A stretch of DNA of 63,975 bases, counting the filler, from Candidatus Woesearchaeota archaeon (lineage in GTDB: Archaea > Nanobdellota > Nanobdellia > Woesearchaeales > BM511), in the NCBI GenBank assembly GCA_023266675.1. It is 5 parts of 5 records of this genome, joined end to end, with 100 filler letters (N's around TTAATTAATTAA, not from the genome) between each part and the next. Parts side by side here need not be neighbours in the genome. Positions count along the whole stretch, not along the records: positions 1 to 30,852 come from JAHFPP010000007.1; 4 more parts are not named here. One strand, 5' to 3'. Below are positions 10,032 to 25,577 of the stretch, piece after piece. Position numbers and translations under genes: made by a program. Every line of letters starts with the position of its first letter. Position 1 is the first letter of the stretch. The notes beneath the pieces are model-generated. The model was not told where the DNA came from. It saw nothing but the letters and a program-made list of their open reading frames with translations, and did not search any database.

Positions 10032-10985
10032 TTATGAATTAAGCAGAACAAACTTTGAAAGTAGCGCTTCAAGCTGTATGAATTCATCAGAGCCTTCAAC
10101 AAGCCTAAATTCTGCCTCACCGCATTCCTTTATCATTTCAAGACGTTTTTTGGCATCAACATCAAGCGACCATATCTGTCCCTGTATCTGTTTTATCAAA
10201 TCAGTTCCTGATAAACCATAATTTAACATTGTGTCTAGCAAATGCTTTTTTGCCTCAATAAATTTTCCTTTAACTGTGAATTCAAGAACTTCCTTTATCT
10301 CTTTAGGTCTGGCGACTGATGCCATTGAATAAACTGTTTCTTCTGTGACATGGTCGCTTACTGCTGCGCATGACTGAAGCACGTTTTCAAGTCTTCTGCA
10401 ATCTCCTTCAGAAACAATAAACAGCGCATCCATTGCCTTAGAATCTATTTTTATCTTTTCATTGTGCGATATCTTTTTTATAATGTCAAGTATATCATCC
10501 TTGTTTAATGGCTTAAATTTGAACAATGCACATCTGGACTGTATAGGATCTATTATTTTTGACGGATAATTGCATGAGAGTATGAACCTGCACGTGTTTG
10601 TGTAGTTCTCCATTGTACGTCTTAATGCCTGCTGCGCTTCACGTGTCAAAGCGTCACACTCATCAAGATATATTATTTTAAATGGAACCTCTCCAAGTGC
10701 TCTTGTTCTAGCAAAATCCTTGACTTTTATTCTTACTACGTCAATTCCTCTTTCGTCTGACGCGTTTAGCTCAAGAAAGTTTTCTCTCCATGAAGGACCA
10801 AAGAATTCTTTTGCTATAACAAGTGAAAGCGTTGTCTTGCCGATGCCTGCTGGACCTGTGAATAAAAGATGAGGCATATTTTTCTGTTTTATAAATGCTT
10901 TTACTCTCTTAACTATATCTTCCTGTCCTTTAATATCATCAAAACTTGATGGTCTGTACTTTTCTGTCCACATTGATGTTTCCAT
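10032..10985 (-). CDS. rfcS: Replication factor C small subunit
   Basis: WTEKYRP, Walker A GPAGIGKT, ELNASDERG, LDECD, SRC motif. Confidence 0.97.
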   Translation of the reverse strand: METSMWTEKYRPSSFDDIKGQEDIVKRVKAFIKQKNMPHLLFTGPAGIGKTTLSLVIAKEFFGPSWRENFLELNASDERGIDVVRIKVKDFARTRALGEVPFKIIYLDECDALTREAQQALRRTMENYTNTCRFILSCNYPSKIIDPIQSRCALFKFKPLNKDDILDIIKKISHNEKIKIDSKAMDALFIVSEGDCRRLENVLQSCAAVSDHVTEETVYSMASVARPKEIKEVLEFTVKGKFIEAKKHLLDTMLNYGLSGTDLIKQIQGQIWSLDVDAKKRLEMIKECGEAEFRLVEGSDEFIQLEALLSKFVLLNS

Positions 10986-11029
10986 GATTAAAATAGGATT
11001 TGGTGTTATTATTAAATCTTTCTAGAATA

Positions 11030-11164
11030 ATGCTTTATTGAAAAGTTACCCTACTTCATCTCACTCACTTTAAAACGTTCGTTCGATTCCGTCTGACCTT
11101 GCAATATTTATCTAATAAATAATTGCAAATAATGGTGCAGACGGTTAACTTTTCAATAACGCCT
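11030..11164. mobile_element. MITE-like structured repeat, family A copy 1
   Basis: Terminal inverted repeat GCTTTATTGAAAAGTTA/TAACTTTTCAATAACGC, flanking direct repeat AGAATA, second copy at 25367. Confidence 0.75.
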
Positions 11165-11329
11165 AGAATATAAGACTAAAATATAAAAAAATAATGCATC
11201 ATGAAAGTAAATATTAAAGATAGAATAAAAATATATAGAAAATCTTGAAAAACATAGCAAAATTTTCTAAGAAGTGCTTTGAAATATCATAAAGAGAGGG
11301 TTATTCAAAGCCCTCTATATTAAAAAAAA

Positions 11330-19412: not shown

Positions 19413-20552
19413 TTGAAATCTGAAAAAGAACTTGATAATGTAATGTATTCTTACACATCAGAAAACAATGGACTTGAAGAAGAAAATAGAGTTCTTAGAG
19501 AAACAATTTCCCAATTAAAATCTGAACTTGACAGATTAAAAATTCCTCCGCTCATGGTTTGCGAAGTCCTTGAACTTATAGGTGAAAATGCAATAATAAA
19601 AGTTCCAAATGGAAACCAATTTTTTGTAAACGTTTCAACTGATATAAAAACACTTGAATCTGGAGACACAGTTCTTGTTGACCAAAAAAACCTTAATATT
19701 CTTAGAAAAATAGGAAAAGAAAGTTCATTTAACGTTGAAAAATTCGTTATAATCGAGAAACCAAAATTGAAATGGGAAGATATTGGAGGTCTAGAAGATC
19801 AGATAAATGAAATAAAAGAAGTTATTGAACTTCCTTTGAAAAATCCTGAATTATTCAAAAAAATAGGAATAACTCCGCCAAAAGGAGTATTATTATATGG
19901 TCCTCCTGGAACAGGAAAAACACTTTTAGCTAAAGCAGTTGCTTCATCAACAAATAGCACATTTATTGAGGTTGTAGGCTCTGAACTTGTGCAGAAATTC
20001 ATCGGAGAAGGGGCAAAACTTGTAAAAGAGATATTTGCGCTTGCAAAAAGAAAAGCTCCTGCAATAATATTTATTGACGAAATTGATGCACTAGCAGCAA
20101 GAAGGATAGAAATTGGAACATCTGGTGAACGAGAAGTTCAAAGAACGTTCATGCAATTCTTGGCTGAAATTGATGGATTCAAGAATCTTGGAAACATAAA
20201 AATAATAGGATGCACAAACCGTAAAGACATACTTGACCCTGCAATACTACGTTCTGGACGACTTGACAGACATATAAATGTTGAAGCTCCAAATATCGCT
20301 GGAGTAAAGCAAATATTCAAAATTCACACATCAAGAATGCACCTTGACAAGAAAATAAACACAGACAAGCTTTTCAAAGACATGGAAGGATTTTCAGGCG
20401 CAGAAATAAAAGCCACATGCACAGAAGCAGGATACTTTGCAATAAGGGAAAAAAGAACATCAATATCCGAAAAGGACTTCATTAATGCAGTAAAGAAAGT
20501 ACGTGAGAAGGAAGAGCAGGAAAGCACTGATCACATCAATATGTTCGGATAA
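19413..20552 (+). CDS. pan: Proteasome-activating nucleotidase
   Basis: N-terminal coiled coil and OB domain, GPPGTGKTL, FIDEIDA, GRLDR, HbYX-like MFG end; TTG start. Confidence 0.95.
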   Translation: MKSEKELDNVMYSYTSENNGLEEENRVLRETISQLKSELDRLKIPPLMVCEVLELIGENAIIKVPNGNQFFVNVSTDIKTLESGDTVLVDQKNLNILRKIGKESSFNVEKFVIIEKPKLKWEDIGGLEDQINEIKEVIELPLKNPELFKKIGITPPKGVLLYGPPGTGKTLLAKAVASSTNSTFIEVVGSELVQKFIGEGAKLVKEIFALAKRKAPAIIFIDEIDALAARRIEIGTSGEREVQRTFMQFLAEIDGFKNLGNIKIIGCTNRKDILDPAILRSGRLDRHINVEAPNIAGVKQIFKIHTSRMHLDKKINTDKLFKDMEGFSGAEIKATCTEAGYFAIREKRTSISEKDFINAVKKVREKEEQESTDHINMFG

Positions 20553-20577
20553 ACATATTTGCTGTTTTTTAATTTAA

Positions 20578-21024
20578 TTAATTCTTTGTTTTTACAATTA
20601 AATCAAACATTTCACTTTCAAGATAATATGCCCGCTGATTGTTCTCAAGCTGAATAAAAGAAAGCTGAATACCTTTTTTTATAATACTTTGAATCTGAGA
20701 TTTGATTGTATTATTTGACTTTGAAAGTTGTGATGCAAGATCTCCATAAGTGTATTTCTTGTTTTTTGAAACTGTAAAAATATGAAGTATTTCTTTTTCT
20801 GAGACTGTAAGATTTGACTTTGCATCCTCAACTTTCTTGATTAAATTGTTTTCTGATTTTCTTTCATTAAAAATTGATGCGTCAACAGGTTTTTGCTGTT
20901 CAATTAATTGAAGCCTTTTTTCAATATGAAGTATTTTTTCAGTTAATTCCTGATTTTCTTTTCTTATTTTTAGAAATGCCCGCCGTAAAAGTTCATCCCG
21001 GTTATTATCACTTTCAAACCCCAT
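20578..21024 (-). CDS. Coiled-coil plus winged-HTH DNA-binding protein
   Basis: LTVSEKEIL...TYGDLASQLSKSNNTIKSQIQSI HTH followed by a wing ending RAYYL. Confidence 0.75.
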   Translation of the reverse strand: MGFESDNNRDELLRRAFLKIRKENQELTEKILHIEKRLQLIEQQKPVDASIFNERKSENNLIKKVEDAKSNLTVSEKEILHIFTVSKNKKYTYGDLASQLSKSNNTIKSQIQSIIKKGIQLSFIQLENNQRAYYLESEMFDLIVKTKN

Positions 21025-21086
21025 AAGATTAGTTTGCCAACATTATATATAAATCTTATCAAAAATAAGAAAATAATTCATAATCG

Positions 21087-21183
21087 GTCGTTTAAACGAT
21101 GAAGTTAGTCGTTTAAACGGCATTTTTTGTCGTCTATAAATTCTTAGTCGGTCGTTTAAACGGCAGTTTAAACGATTAAACGG
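21087..21183. repeat. Phased palindromic GTCGTTTAAACG repeats (iteron-like array)
   Basis: Copies at 21087, 21108, 21129 (degenerate) and 21151, plus partial copies at 21166 and 21176. Confidence 0.85.
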
Positions 21184-21319
21184 CATAAAATTATGAATTA
21201 TAATAATTATGTAAAAAATCATTAAAATAACATGTTTAAAAACAGAATATTTTGGGGTATAATTGTATAAAAGATTATGTAATAAAAAGTAAAAGATTGA
21301 AAAAAATAAGAAAAAAAGT

Positions 21320-21380
21320 AGCTCAGCAGTTACTATCCGTTCATCATCCATATTCAGCTGGGGATAACTTCCTCATCGCT
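21320..21380 (-). ncRNA. Box C/D methylation guide sRNA 1
   Basis: Minus strand reads AGCG-ATGAGGA(C)-AGTTATCCCCAG-CTGA(D')-ATATGG-ATGATGA(C')-ACGGATAGTAACTG-CTGA(D)-GCT, with an AGC/GCT terminal stem and an oligo-T terminator. Confidence 0.85.
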
Positions 21381-21464
21381 TCAATCAGTATTAATTATAT
21401 AGAATATAAGTGTTTGTTTTTTAGTTATAAAAATAACAATTATGAATGGCAGTCTTGGAAGATT

Positions 21465-21540
21465 TGCACTCGCTCAGCAGTTACTTCCGTTTGTCACAGG
21501 CATGGCCTCGAATGGTGTTCACTTCTCTCATTGCAAGTCT
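21465..21540 (-). ncRNA. Box C/D methylation guide sRNA 2 (degenerate internal boxes)
   Basis: ATGAGAG (C), guide AAGTGAACACCAT, TCGA (D'), GTGACAA (C'-like), ACGGAAGTAACTG, CTGA (D). D guide nearly identical to sRNA 1. Confidence 0.65.
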
Positions 21541-21623
21541 TGCACTTCCTTAAATTAAGAATGATTTTTTAGTATATAAGCGTTTAGATATCAAAAGATA
21601 TTAATAGCTATAATATGAAAGAT

Positions 21624-22631
21624 TCAGATTATCTGAAAATCAACGCATATCCTGTATACTTTCGGAGCATGTTGTCCGCACTTTACAAGGGTTAGTATTT
21701 TATATTTCATATTATTTTTACTGCATGCTTTTTCTATCTTTTTATATGCCAAATCAAACTCTTTTTCGTTTAAGAAATCATAAAAATGAATTATTGTTCC
21801 TTTTTTTGATGCTGATAAAGCGGAATCTAAGAAATCCTCAGCAGATTTTGGAAGAGGCATGAGTATCCTGTCAAAATGTTTCTTTAACTTTGGAACTTCA
21901 ATTTTTACGTCCCCGTTTATTAAAGTGACATTTTTTATCTTATTCAATTTTATGTTTTCAAGCCCGTATTTATGCCCCTCTGGATTCATTTCTATACCTA
22001 TTATCGATTTTGCCTTCGTATTTTTTGACAAAACACATGGATAAGGCGCTGCTCCAGAGAACATCACAAGTATGTCCTCTTCGGATTTGACAAGTTCAGA
22101 TATTCTTTTTCTTTCAGTTGAAAGACGCGGTGAAAAATAAACTTTTTCAACATTAATTTTAAGCCGTACATTATTTTCTTTATGAATTGTTTCCTTCTTA
22201 TTTTCACCGGCAAGATAAATCATCTTTTGAGTTCGAAAATCACCTTCATGAACCCCTCCTTTCTTTAGAACAGTCTTTATGGTCTTGTTTGACTTTAGAA
22301 GTGCGTCGGCAATTAATTTTTCTTTTTTTTCAAGCTCCCTGTCAACTTCTATTATTGCTATGTCTCCTACATGATCATATGCTGTCTTTAAGGATTCTAT
22401 CTCTTCACTTGTAAGTTTTATTTTTAGAATATCAGCAAATGACTTTTTTTTCTCAGTCTTTTTGAATTTTTTTTCAAAAATACTGTATTCTGAGTCAAAC
22501 TTTTTCTTAATTGGAAGATATATGAACCCTTCTTCTTTTATAAGATCATAATCTGTGTCTAAATTATCTTTTTGCAAGAGCTCTCTTCTTGCTTTTTCAA
22601 CATCTTTCAAAGGAACTCTAAGTGCATGCAT
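21624..22631 (-). CDS. trm5: tRNA (guanine-37-N1)-methyltransferase, Trm5/Tyw2 family
   Basis: GDIAII, YFSPRLSTER, MFSGAAPY, RILMPLP. Confidence 0.85.
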   Translation of the reverse strand: MHALRVPLKDVEKARRELLQKDNLDTDYDLIKEEGFIYLPIKKKFDSEYSIFEKKFKKTEKKKSFADILKIKLTSEEIESLKTAYDHVGDIAIIEVDRELEKKEKLIADALLKSNKTIKTVLKKGGVHEGDFRTQKMIYLAGENKKETIHKENNVRLKINVEKVYFSPRLSTERKRISELVKSEEDILVMFSGAAPYPCVLSKNTKAKSIIGIEMNPEGHKYGLENIKLNKIKNVTLINGDVKIEVPKLKKHFDRILMPLPKSAEDFLDSALSASKKGTIIHFYDFLNEKEFDLAYKKIEKACSKNNMKYKILTLVKCGQHAPKVYRICVDFQII

Positions 22632-24711: not shown

Positions 24712-25323
24712 TTATGGTCTGGTCCACTTAATTTCGTAGTAAGTTACGTCTCCTTCTGAGTCTGCAATACCAATTAGAAGCCTTTTCTTAGTTGAGTGAG
24801 CAACCCTGTTTTTTGCCGCAAAATCGTACCAAGTCATTGCATCTGTTTCATTTACCGGGTAGAGTACCCATTTTGCATGGTCTTCACCAGGCTTAACTCC
24901 TCGGTCATATACTCTAAAATCAGCGCCGAATTTCAATGCAGTCTTAACTATATATCCTCGTTCTCGCATATCCTTAAAAACTTTGTATCGTGTAAAAAAG
25001 TTTTTTTCCTTTTTCTGGGCTTTTTTTAGAAATTCTTCAAGCGTAACTATCTTTTTTCCTGAATAAATCTTGATCTTTTCTTTTTCAAGTAGGTATAATG
25101 ATTCTATGAATGAAAGCTCAACTTTTTTTTGATGAATACCGCCAAATCTGCTTAATGCATATAGCTCTCTGGCTGGGTCTGAGTCTTCAGTCAATACCGT
25201 ATCATCATGAAGATGCGCTTTGACAAACGTTTTTTCTTTAGATTCTTTCTTTGGCTCTTTGATAATCTCAGATAATTTTACAGTTTCAATTGTTTGGACT
25301 TCTTTAGCTTTATCTTTTACCAT
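24712..25323 (-). CDS. endA: tRNA-splicing endonuclease
   Basis: ESLYL, GYIVKTALKFGADFRVY, HAKW, RVAHSTKK (catalytic Y/H/K). Confidence 0.95.
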   Translation of the reverse strand: MVKDKAKEVQTIETVKLSEIIKEPKKESKEKTFVKAHLHDDTVLTEDSDPARELYALSRFGGIHQKKVELSFIESLYLLEKEKIKIYSGKKIVTLEEFLKKAQKKEKNFFTRYKVFKDMRERGYIVKTALKFGADFRVYDRGVKPGEDHAKWVLYPVNETDAMTWYDFAAKNRVAHSTKKRLLIGIADSEGDVTYYEIKWTRP

Positions 25324-25366
25324 AATATGTAAGAACGCTTATTTGCTTAAAAACGTTGCGATTGAG

Positions 25367-25502
25367 GAGTATTATTAAAAAGTTACCCTACTACATCTCG
25401 TTACGTAAAAATACTTCACTCGATTTCGTCTGGCCACGCCATTATTTGCTATGCAAATAATGGCTAATAATGGCACAGACGGTTAACTTTTCAATAACGC
25501 AA
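25367..25502. mobile_element. MITE-like structured repeat, family A copy 2
   Basis: Same terminal repeats and internal stems as 11030-11164; flanks ATTGAG/ATTGAT in the same register. Confidence 0.75.
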
Positions 25503-25577
25503 ATTGATGGTTTTAATGATAATAATTATGATTAGTTATAGGAAGCTTTTAAATAATGGACAAAACTTCTTATTCAT

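Follow-up and report, generated by a model that had tools for sequence, protein, structure and literature searches.

The window analyzed here is a stretch of 63,975 nucleotides, filler included, from the genome of a Candidatus Woesearchaeota archaeon (assembly GCA_023266675.1), a small groundwater archaeon with a genome of 1.22 Mb, 34% G+C and 83 contigs. Positions 1-30852 correspond to contig C26, and eight runs of 44 N (four pairs) occur after 30852, within positions 30853-57639. [quoted passage not shown] Their boundaries were set by the flanking direct repeats, and BLAST returned 78% identity between them over query positions 6-133. Each copy lies ahead of a gene on the minus strand, with the end of copy 1 at 45 bp from the ATG at 10985 (gene 10032-10985) and the end of copy 2 at 44 bp from the ATG at 25323 (gene 24712-25323).

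Table 1. Features of the two element copies in the window. P1, P2 and P3 are the helices of the fold and J3/1 is the junction strand; a dot marks features given without strand.
Feature	Coordinates	Strand	Evidence
MITE copy 1, 133 bp; folding strand M = window minus strand	11030..11162	-	covariance model, 140.6 bits
Target-site duplication of copy 1, left, CTAGAATA	11022..11029	.	sequence read
Target-site duplication of copy 1, right, CTAGAATA, 8/8	11163..11170	.	sequence read
Copy 1 terminal inverted repeat, corresponding to IRL, the left inverted repeat in the related insertion sequences; P1 3' arm on the minus strand	11032..11048	.	
Copy 1 terminal inverted repeat, P2-side end	11146..11162	.	
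Copy 1 junction strand J3/1 (minus strand GAAGUAGG, plus strand CCTACTTC)	11050..11057	-	
Copy 1 hairpin P3, two tandem G.A/A.G steps, minus strand only	11058..11087	-	minimum-energy fold
Copy 1 long irregular hairpin P2	11090..11143	-	
Putative TATA-like box of gene 10032-10985 (ATG 10985)	11006..11016	-	by eye
MITE copy 2, 134 bp	25369..25502	-	covariance model, 148.5 bits
Decayed target-site duplication of copy 2, left, ATTGAGGA	25361..25368	.	
Decayed target-site duplication of copy 2, right, ATTGATGG, 6/8	25503..25510	.	
Copy 2 junction strand J3/1, GUAGUAGG on the minus strand	25387..25394	-	
Copy 2 hairpin P3; lower tandem G.A step retained, AC/GU step changed to GU/AC	25395..25424	-	
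Copy 2 hairpin P2	25427..25481	-	
Putative TATA-like box of gene 24712-25323 (ATG 25323)	25345..25354	-	by eye

A preliminary description of this DNA had placed two copies with 17-bp terminal inverted repeats at these sites, which was borne out by reading of the sequence and by the BLAST identity. The inverted repeats of the element start with GGC, and those of copy 1 are complementary at 16 of 17 positions. The 6-bp flanking repeats of that description correspond to a real duplication but were given too short, AGAATA being part of the perfect 8-bp repeat CTAGAATA. The constant CGTCTG/CAGACG pairing, the change of ACC/GGT into GCC(A)/(T)GGC and the replaced inner hairpin were each found in both copies, as was the minus-strand arm that reads AUC-GA-AC-GA-AC...GU-GA-GU-GA-GAU in copy 1 and has its AC/GU step turned into GU/AC in copy 2.

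Among the 94 copies with enough flanking sequence, a direct repeat of 8 bp was perfect in 24 and agreed at 7/8 positions in 28, compared with 0.9% (8/8) and 10.9% (7/8) when flanks were paired between different copies. The element is short and devoid of coding capacity, the window copies measuring 133-134 bp. The divergent gene pair around copy 2 was syntenic in seven of nine loci of relatives, where inspection by eye showed intergenic DNA without the element, and the empty loci contained two TATA-like boxes; the comparison is one between orthologous loci and not between alleles. None of the read contigs skipped copy 1 or copy 2, i.e. they contained no polymorphic empty allele, and copy 1 occurred unchanged on one DNA contig from a second run of the same study. 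Because of the inverted repeats, the 8-bp duplications, the dispersed copies and the empty orthologous site, the element is very probably a MITE, that is, a gene-less derivative of an IS5-type insertion sequence.

The genome of origin contains about 10 copies on nine contigs, comprising nine strong matches to the covariance model and one copy of 330 bp with large insertions that was detected by BLAST only. The covariance model, R1, was built from seven short copies. Run on 100 other genomes of the order (records titled Woesearchaeota), it gave matches at E<=0.01 in 12, most of them with several copies. An exact core pattern, consisting of the two halves of the P2 base and the gap between them, was found in 91 stretches among species-representative genomes; 86 of these belonged to metagenome-assembled genomes titled Candidatus Woesearchaeota or Nanoarchaeota or to third-party annotation (TPA) bins titled 'uncultured Methanosarcinales'. 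The remaining five were located in bacteria, inside G+C-rich DNA, and were taken for chance matches, about two being expected by chance. No viral contig contained the core pattern. The Rfam covariance models gave no match at E<=1 on the element within window positions 1-30852 or at ten further loci. We found no published description of this MITE family; the supplementary tables of a MITE census (PMC11602168), which the search did not cover, may list it.

Several variants of the element were observed. Three copies of the same genome, C58:4167-4497 (L010), C46:5183-5364 (L081, 182 nt) and C11:12327-12506 (L007, 180 nt), contain 45-200 nt of extra sequence in the P2 and/or P3 loops and retain the ends and the junction. 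In genome G096 (loci L042, L051, L059, L070 and L076) a composite, read by eye, has a complete inverted copy inserted in an outer one at the P3 position; it is repeated, with the same flanks, four times or more. The locus L152 (~1980-2080) shows a minimal relative composed of a 20-bp outer stem and P2 alone, lacking both the junction motif and P3, and P3 is also missing from the copies of G066. P2 therefore represents the core module.

On the minus strand the element forms a three-way junction made up of the outer stem P1, built from the two inverted repeats, a long hairpin, P2, and a short hairpin, P3, in the order P1 5' arm, CGUCUG-U-GCC...(P2)...GGC-CAGACG, nA, P3, G-n-A-g-U-A-G-g, P1 3' arm. 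In copy 1 the P2 base CGUCUG/CAGACG is followed by a 1-nt bulge and then by ACC/GGU, most copies having GCC/GGC. The pairing was evaluated on 46 copies from 11 genomes that had been found by the covariance model alone. Standard pairs occupied 96.0% of the 1721 pair cells, compared with 69.0% after shuffling (0 of 500 shuffles as high) and 33-41% in controls with slid partners, and double changes occurred at 37 of the 41 pairs; the statement of the preliminary description that the interior keeps pairing despite its sequence divergence was thus confirmed. P1 retained all its 15 pairs, with 96.4% of cells paired. An alignment of 97 copies gave the same values for pairing and double changes, the slid-partner controls ranging from 30 to 41% over both sets.

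The pairing was held across 11 genomes of different families in which the sequences of P1, of distal P2 and of P3 had been replaced. The P2 base itself covaries between genomes, occurring as CGTCTG/CAGACG, CGTCGG/CCGACG, CGTCGC/GCGACG and CGTCAC/GTGACG, and in other lineages P3 shows GUU/GUU loops instead of the tandem G.A steps. The junction nucleotides A, U and A were invariant in the 97 copies, the junction motif lying outside the pattern used to fish for copies. Minimum energies of the minus strand were -43.4 kcal/mol for copy 1 and -50.3 kcal/mol for copy 2, with z values of -6.5 and -8.0 respectively and none of 200 shuffles as good. Three further readings of the fold were considered by eye and rejected: a C/D box or K-turn at the tandem G.A hairpin, where both a 3-nt bulge and conserved C/D boxes are missing; a core of the hammerhead kind, whose consensus the junction strands do not fit; and a pseudoknot between junction strand and P2, for which the complementary CCUAC is present in only three copies of the own genome.

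The fold showed a marked strand preference. Counted on the minus strand, G.U and U.G pairs filled 165 cells against 30 for A.C and C.A, and in the interior helices the figures were 126 against 17. At pair 24-147 of the P2 base, G.U occurred 25 times, in at least six genomes, and A.C in none (count 0). Folding with RNA parameters made the minus strand the more stable one in 94 of 96 copies (mean -59.9 vs -50.5 kcal/mol), and with DNA parameters this was so in 92 of 96; in the window copies, P3 appeared in the minimum-energy fold of the minus strand only. The selection on a single-stranded fold proposed in the preliminary description is therefore upheld by the compensatory changes together with the minus-strand specificity, and we consider it fairly probable that the minus-strand fold is under selection.

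As a possible source of the element ends, genes of the DDE_Tnp_1 family (PF01609) were found in 39 of 101 genomes of the order. The end type of the MITE was present on three of 30 transposase loci scanned, L210 (G045), L209 (G067) and L218 (G008), whose flanking duplications are of 8 bp (or 9 bp). The insertion sequence (IS) of L210 is 890 bp long (L210:1131-2020) and bears inverted repeats GGTTGTGTAGAAAA(A/T)GT, with ends GGTTGTGTAGAAAAAGT and ...AAAATGT and identical flanks GTTTTTTAT. L209 (~1077-1968) shows the 8-bp flank AGCCTAAG on both sides, and in L218 the inverted repeat reads GGCTCTGTCC..., with GGCTCTGTCCTAAAAGT at the first base of the contig and the other end about 0.9 kb away. 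The reading frames of these IS copies (285-326 aa) matched PF01609 with E values of 6e-15 (L210), 2e-16 (L209) and 2e-13 (L218). Their nearest annotated relatives, both on plasmid records, were an 'IS5 family transposase' of Methanomethylovorans hollandica (38% identity) and ISH28 of Halobacterium (32%). ISH28 has GGCTCTGGTGAATCGC at both ends, and the Methanomethylovorans IS ends in GGCTCTGTAGAAAA and GGCTTTGTAGAAAT, its flanks agreeing at 7/8 positions; the ends of both insertion sequences begin with GGCTCTG. The subgroup may be ISH1- or IS903-like (8-9 bp duplications, GGC ends).

Both sequence-conserved blocks of the MITE, the junction motif and the P2 base, have counterparts at the IS ends. 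The plus-strand junction motif of the MITE, CCTACTTT, comes immediately after the left inverted repeat GGCTCTGTAGAAAA of the Methanomethylovorans IS. At the position of the MITE P2 base, next to the right inverted repeat, both L209 and L210 have a mini hairpin, GTCTGG-NNNN-CCAGAC. From the position of these counterparts it follows that the plus strand of the MITE corresponds to the sense strand of the transposase, so that the folding strand is the antisense one with respect to the transposase of the parent IS. The junction motif and the P2 base may be conserved for reasons acting at the DNA level. Run on 31 transposase loci, R1 found nothing at E<=1 except one match at chance level. PF01609 genes occurred in seven of 12 MITE-positive and 32 of 88 MITE-negative genomes, a comparison that is uninformative since the family is too broad.

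The preliminary description had suggested a new kind of mobile structured RNA or single-stranded DNA (ssDNA) element. This was not borne out, as the element shows DDE-type hallmarks with 8-bp duplications and its ends match those of IS5-family insertion sequences in related archaea and on a Methanomethylovorans plasmid; a match to a known IS end was one of the outcomes that the description itself had named as refuting. Candidates for the autonomous partner envisaged there are the IS5-family insertion sequences of G045, G067 and G008, which share the end type; the genome of origin gave no PF01609 match.

Other candidates for the partner or the source were rejected. A partner of the IS1595 type was dismissed because PF12762 was found in none of five MITE-bearing genomes. 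A HUH partner (REPIN/RAYT, IS200/IS605) was dismissed as well, PF01797 exceeding the cut-off in only two of five MITE-bearing genomes and being absent from the genome of origin (G000) and from G074, and the 8-bp duplications being contrary to the absence of duplication expected of such elements. Long inverted-repeat pairs in G075 and G058 yielded only short pairs and solo ends, the open reading frame (ORF) between two such ends in L084 encodes a metallophosphoesterase, the solo end in L085 is without a second end, and the IS5-type element of G075 (L180) has different ends. Homology of the inner extensions of the inverted repeats (CCGTCTG vs CCTACTT) was unconvincing, with about 4/9 positions in agreement.

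Two observations concern elements with related ends. A second MITE family, found in G075 (L183-L186, L191 and L192) and at L084:1384-1549, shares the end type (GGC..GTTGAAAAA) and has an unrelated, G+C-rich, branched interior of 160-215 bp, its short flanks adjoining TATA-like boxes. In L209 and L210 a hairpin GGGAATCG..CGATTCCC directly precedes the transposase ATG and another one comes after the left inverted repeat; these hairpins may sequester translation signals.

Placement relative to genes was examined on 103 non-redundant copies with crude ORF calls; weak matches, the composites of G096, copies interrupted by the end of a contig and three copies of G074 truncated at the 5' end had been excluded. 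The copies were intergenic in 94 cases. On the M-5' side the neighboring gene was divergently transcribed in 75 of 99 cases, and on the M-3' side the neighbor started next to the element in 55 of 100. Of the 120 sides that face a start codon, 35 had the element end at a distance of 43-48 bp from the ATG, and only 14 had it closer. Considering the sides at least 43 bp from a start, 33% fell at 43-48 bp, compared with 3.1% under uniform intergenic insertion; when sides up to 120 bp only were counted, the figures were 43% observed and about 10% expected. By eye, all 35 sequences showed a TATA-like octamer at about 30 nt from the ATG, preceded by A-rich sequence, and the 8-bp duplication a few bases further upstream. 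In L210 the distance between the autonomous copy and an ATG is likewise 45 bp, and a TATA-like box lies in between. A cause on the side of the host, such as accessible or bent DNA at promoter edges or purifying selection in compact intergenic DNA, is at least as likely for this placement as a special property of the transposase.

The persistence of the stems was assessed by stratifying 95 alignment rows according to the preservation of the target duplication. Copies with an 8/8 duplication (n=24) showed 96.9% Watson-Crick plus G.U pairs and 0.6% A.C, and those with 6/8 or less (n=42), a class that may include copies with mis-set boundaries, 96.3% and 0.6%, the G.U share passing from 3.7% to 5.4%. 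Provided that the copies of the low-scoring class are indeed old, their stems did not decay together with the flanks. Stems retained in this way would point to selection after insertion and not only during transposition.

On these data we consider it probable that the element is a gene-less MITE of an IS5-family IS of about 0.9 kb, residing in Woesearchaeota-type DPANN archaea and carrying a selected minus-strand fold. An IS5-type transposase acting in trans would bind the inverted repeats and paste the element into an 8-bp staggered cut, usually made a few bases upstream of the B recognition element (BRE) and TATA box of a leaderless gene, so that the promoter would remain intact. Selection after insertion would then act on the fold of the single minus strand, in all likelihood that of a transcript, which could come from read-through or start within the promoter region next to the element. 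As a guess, such a compact RNA module might insulate or terminate transcription or bind a protein and thus make the insertion tolerable or useful. It is possible, though we propose it only tentatively, that the minus-strand transcript is a functional structured RNA, a three-way junction with a bulged basal helix of conserved sequence and a hairpin with tandem G.A pairs, which a DNA transposon spreads to the upstream edge of promoters; there it would insulate against or terminate divergent or read-through transcription, or serve as a protein-binding module, and be kept by host-level selection across this DPANN order. Any particular RNA function of the fold is doubtful.

Some of the data weigh against such a MITE with a selected fold. 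With no PF01609 gene in the genome of origin, mobilization in trans is inferred for this host, and the IS ends of L210, L209 and L218 are not identical to those of any MITE subfamily. The excess of G.U could derive in part from a sequence constraint on one arm, as at pair 24-147, whose 5' arm abuts the inverted repeat, and in part from an alignment fitted to the model. P2 conservation is inflated in the 97-copy alignment, as 63 of its rows had been retrieved by the exact P2 pattern, and the covariation statistics rest on shuffled and slid-partner controls, copies of the same genome being non-independent. The orientation relative to neighboring genes is only mildly biased (38 vs 18 in tandem-gene cases), which misfits a strict cis-regulatory RNA. 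A single 165-nt contig from the RNA library of the source sample overlaps the element, at 25372-25438 only, where DNA carry-over is possible; the RNA-library data consist of assembled contigs, from which neither transcription nor its absence follows.

The stems might also belong to a passive MITE, having arisen from two IS ends and being still young, with compensation due to descent, gene conversion or quasi-palindrome correction by template switching and no selection on any fold. The element is indeed a MITE whose copies within a genome are related, the second family of G075 with the same end type is likewise a long branched palindrome, and MITE transcripts in general are reported to fold into stable stem-loops (PMC10969869). 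We regard this account as quite unlikely, since pairing was held across 11 genomes of different families through the replacement of the helix sequences, the asymmetry between G.U and A.C is not what descent or palindrome correction would predict, pairing still stood at 96.3% in copies whose target duplication is no longer detectable, and the non-canonical motifs (tandem G.A, GUU/GUU loops) were kept on one strand only. The fold might instead serve transposition, a transiently single-stranded minus strand, for example during replication, joining the ends and aiding synapsis or excision of a 130-bp element too short to bend as a duplex. This would agree with the preference for the minus strand under DNA parameters (92/96 copies) and with G.T and tandem G.A being better-tolerated mismatches in DNA, and the structured, unrelated interior of the second MITE family hints at a need for such an interior in short elements with these ends. 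Such a role is nevertheless unlikely: full-length insertion sequences have the same ends without the P2/P3 core (31 loci), so that the enzyme does not need the core, DDE enzymes of the IS5 family act on duplex ends, giving 8-bp duplications, and the stems kept by old copies point to selection after insertion.

Binding of proteins to the duplex would offer a different explanation, with CGTCTG..CAGACG as the site of a dimeric protein (transposase or host regulator), CCTACT as an extension of the left repeat and the structure as a by-product. The occurrence of CCTACTTT after the left inverted repeat of the Methanomethylovorans IS, the GTCTGG-NNNN-CCAGAC hairpin abutting the right inverted repeat in L209 and L210 and the vicinity of promoters all point in this direction. 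Duplex sites would explain only the sequence-conserved base, however, and neither the covarying distal P2, P3 and P1 nor the strand asymmetry; the pairing-preserving swaps in the P2 base (CGTCGG/CCGACG, CGTCGC/GCGACG, CGTCAC/GTGACG) are likewise left unexplained, which makes this explanation very unlikely. A free-standing structured RNA gene or a self-cleaving ribozyme that resembles a transposon, as the three-way junction, the invariant junction nucleotides and the strong covariation might suggest, is hardly credible. This reading is largely refuted by the transposon hallmarks, namely target duplications, inverted ends of a DDE IS, the nesting of copies and their dispersal, about 10 per genome, in either orientation, and no Rfam family, ribozymes included, matched at E<=1.

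Elsewhere on contig C26, a weak match to a C/D-box small RNA (snoPyro_CD, 29.2 bits, E 0.023, gathering score 45) was detected at 21320-21380 on the minus strand, which fits an archaeal genome. At 21455-21546 the RNA library of the source sample contributed a 106-nt contig, which has the highest depth of the stretch (64.5), and ARAGORN returned no tRNA within 20500-22500, around this contig.

The preferred reading, a MITE with a selected minus-strand fold, places the element close to several known systems. Its nearest relatives are the archaeal insertion sequences of the IS5 family, represented by the IS of M. hollandica pMETHO01 (transposase WP_015313961.1) and by Halobacterium ISH28, which share the end type (GGCTCTG..., GGCTCTGTAGAAAA); the element differs from them in being gene-less, 133 bp long and provided with two hairpins that the covariance model found in none of the 31 transposase loci. 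REPINs are not known to have 8-bp target duplications or DDE-type inverted ends. The REP/REPIN elements, which depend on RAYT (HUH, Y1), resemble the present family in a conserved GTAG beside a hairpin and in their many intergenic copies, but Y1_Tnp exceeded the cut-off in only two of five MITE-bearing genomes, the genome of origin not being one of them. Correia, ERIC, RUP and BOX are structured bacterial MITEs whose transcripts act as RNA. They are likewise mobile DNA acting through a folded transcript or embedded signals near genes, a role that for the present element is only proposed, and they belong to another domain of life, another transposase family and another fold. For Correia elements, roles as promoters, integration host factor (IHF) sites and terminators are described in PMC10969869.

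Prokaryotic MITEs, among them the archaeal ones of Sulfolobus, Halobacterium and Haloquadratum, are similarly small, gene-less and intergenic, with AT-rich targets, inverted repeats, duplications and transcripts predicted to fold stably (PMC10969869), and a Woesearchaea genome with 105 MITEs per Mb appears in the 2024 census (PMC11602168). What sets the present element apart from these is an interior that is conserved, as well as the ends, across families of an order, compensatory and strand-biased, and a fixed distance from start codons. An archaeal precedent for RNA of transposon origin is provided by the RNA-257 paralogues of Sulfolobus solfataricus, which according to PMC3674436 are transposon-derived small RNAs with a cellular role that involves extended antisense pairing to a 3' untranslated region. 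The Woesearchaeota element, by comparison, is known from DNA sequence only.

MITEs are usually seen as inert debris in which only the ends are constrained; here the ends drift between genomes and the internal fold is kept. A transposon that carries a working RNA (or ssDNA) part would be expected to show just such compensatory, strand-specific change, old copies included. The fixed spot upstream of BRE and TATA would make the family a case for mobile DNA coexisting with, or being reused by, compact DPANN genomes. Yeast Ty3 and Ty1 are retroelements whose promoter-directed integration at Pol III genes relies on contacts between integrase and TFIIIB. By analogy, both they and the present element insert at a fixed short distance from the initiation complex and spare the gene, with the difference that the placement of the element is known from sequence alone and selection in a compact genome may contribute to it. 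If the placement is aimed, and not filtered by selection, it would represent a prokaryotic counterpart of the promoter-directed integration of yeast retroelements.

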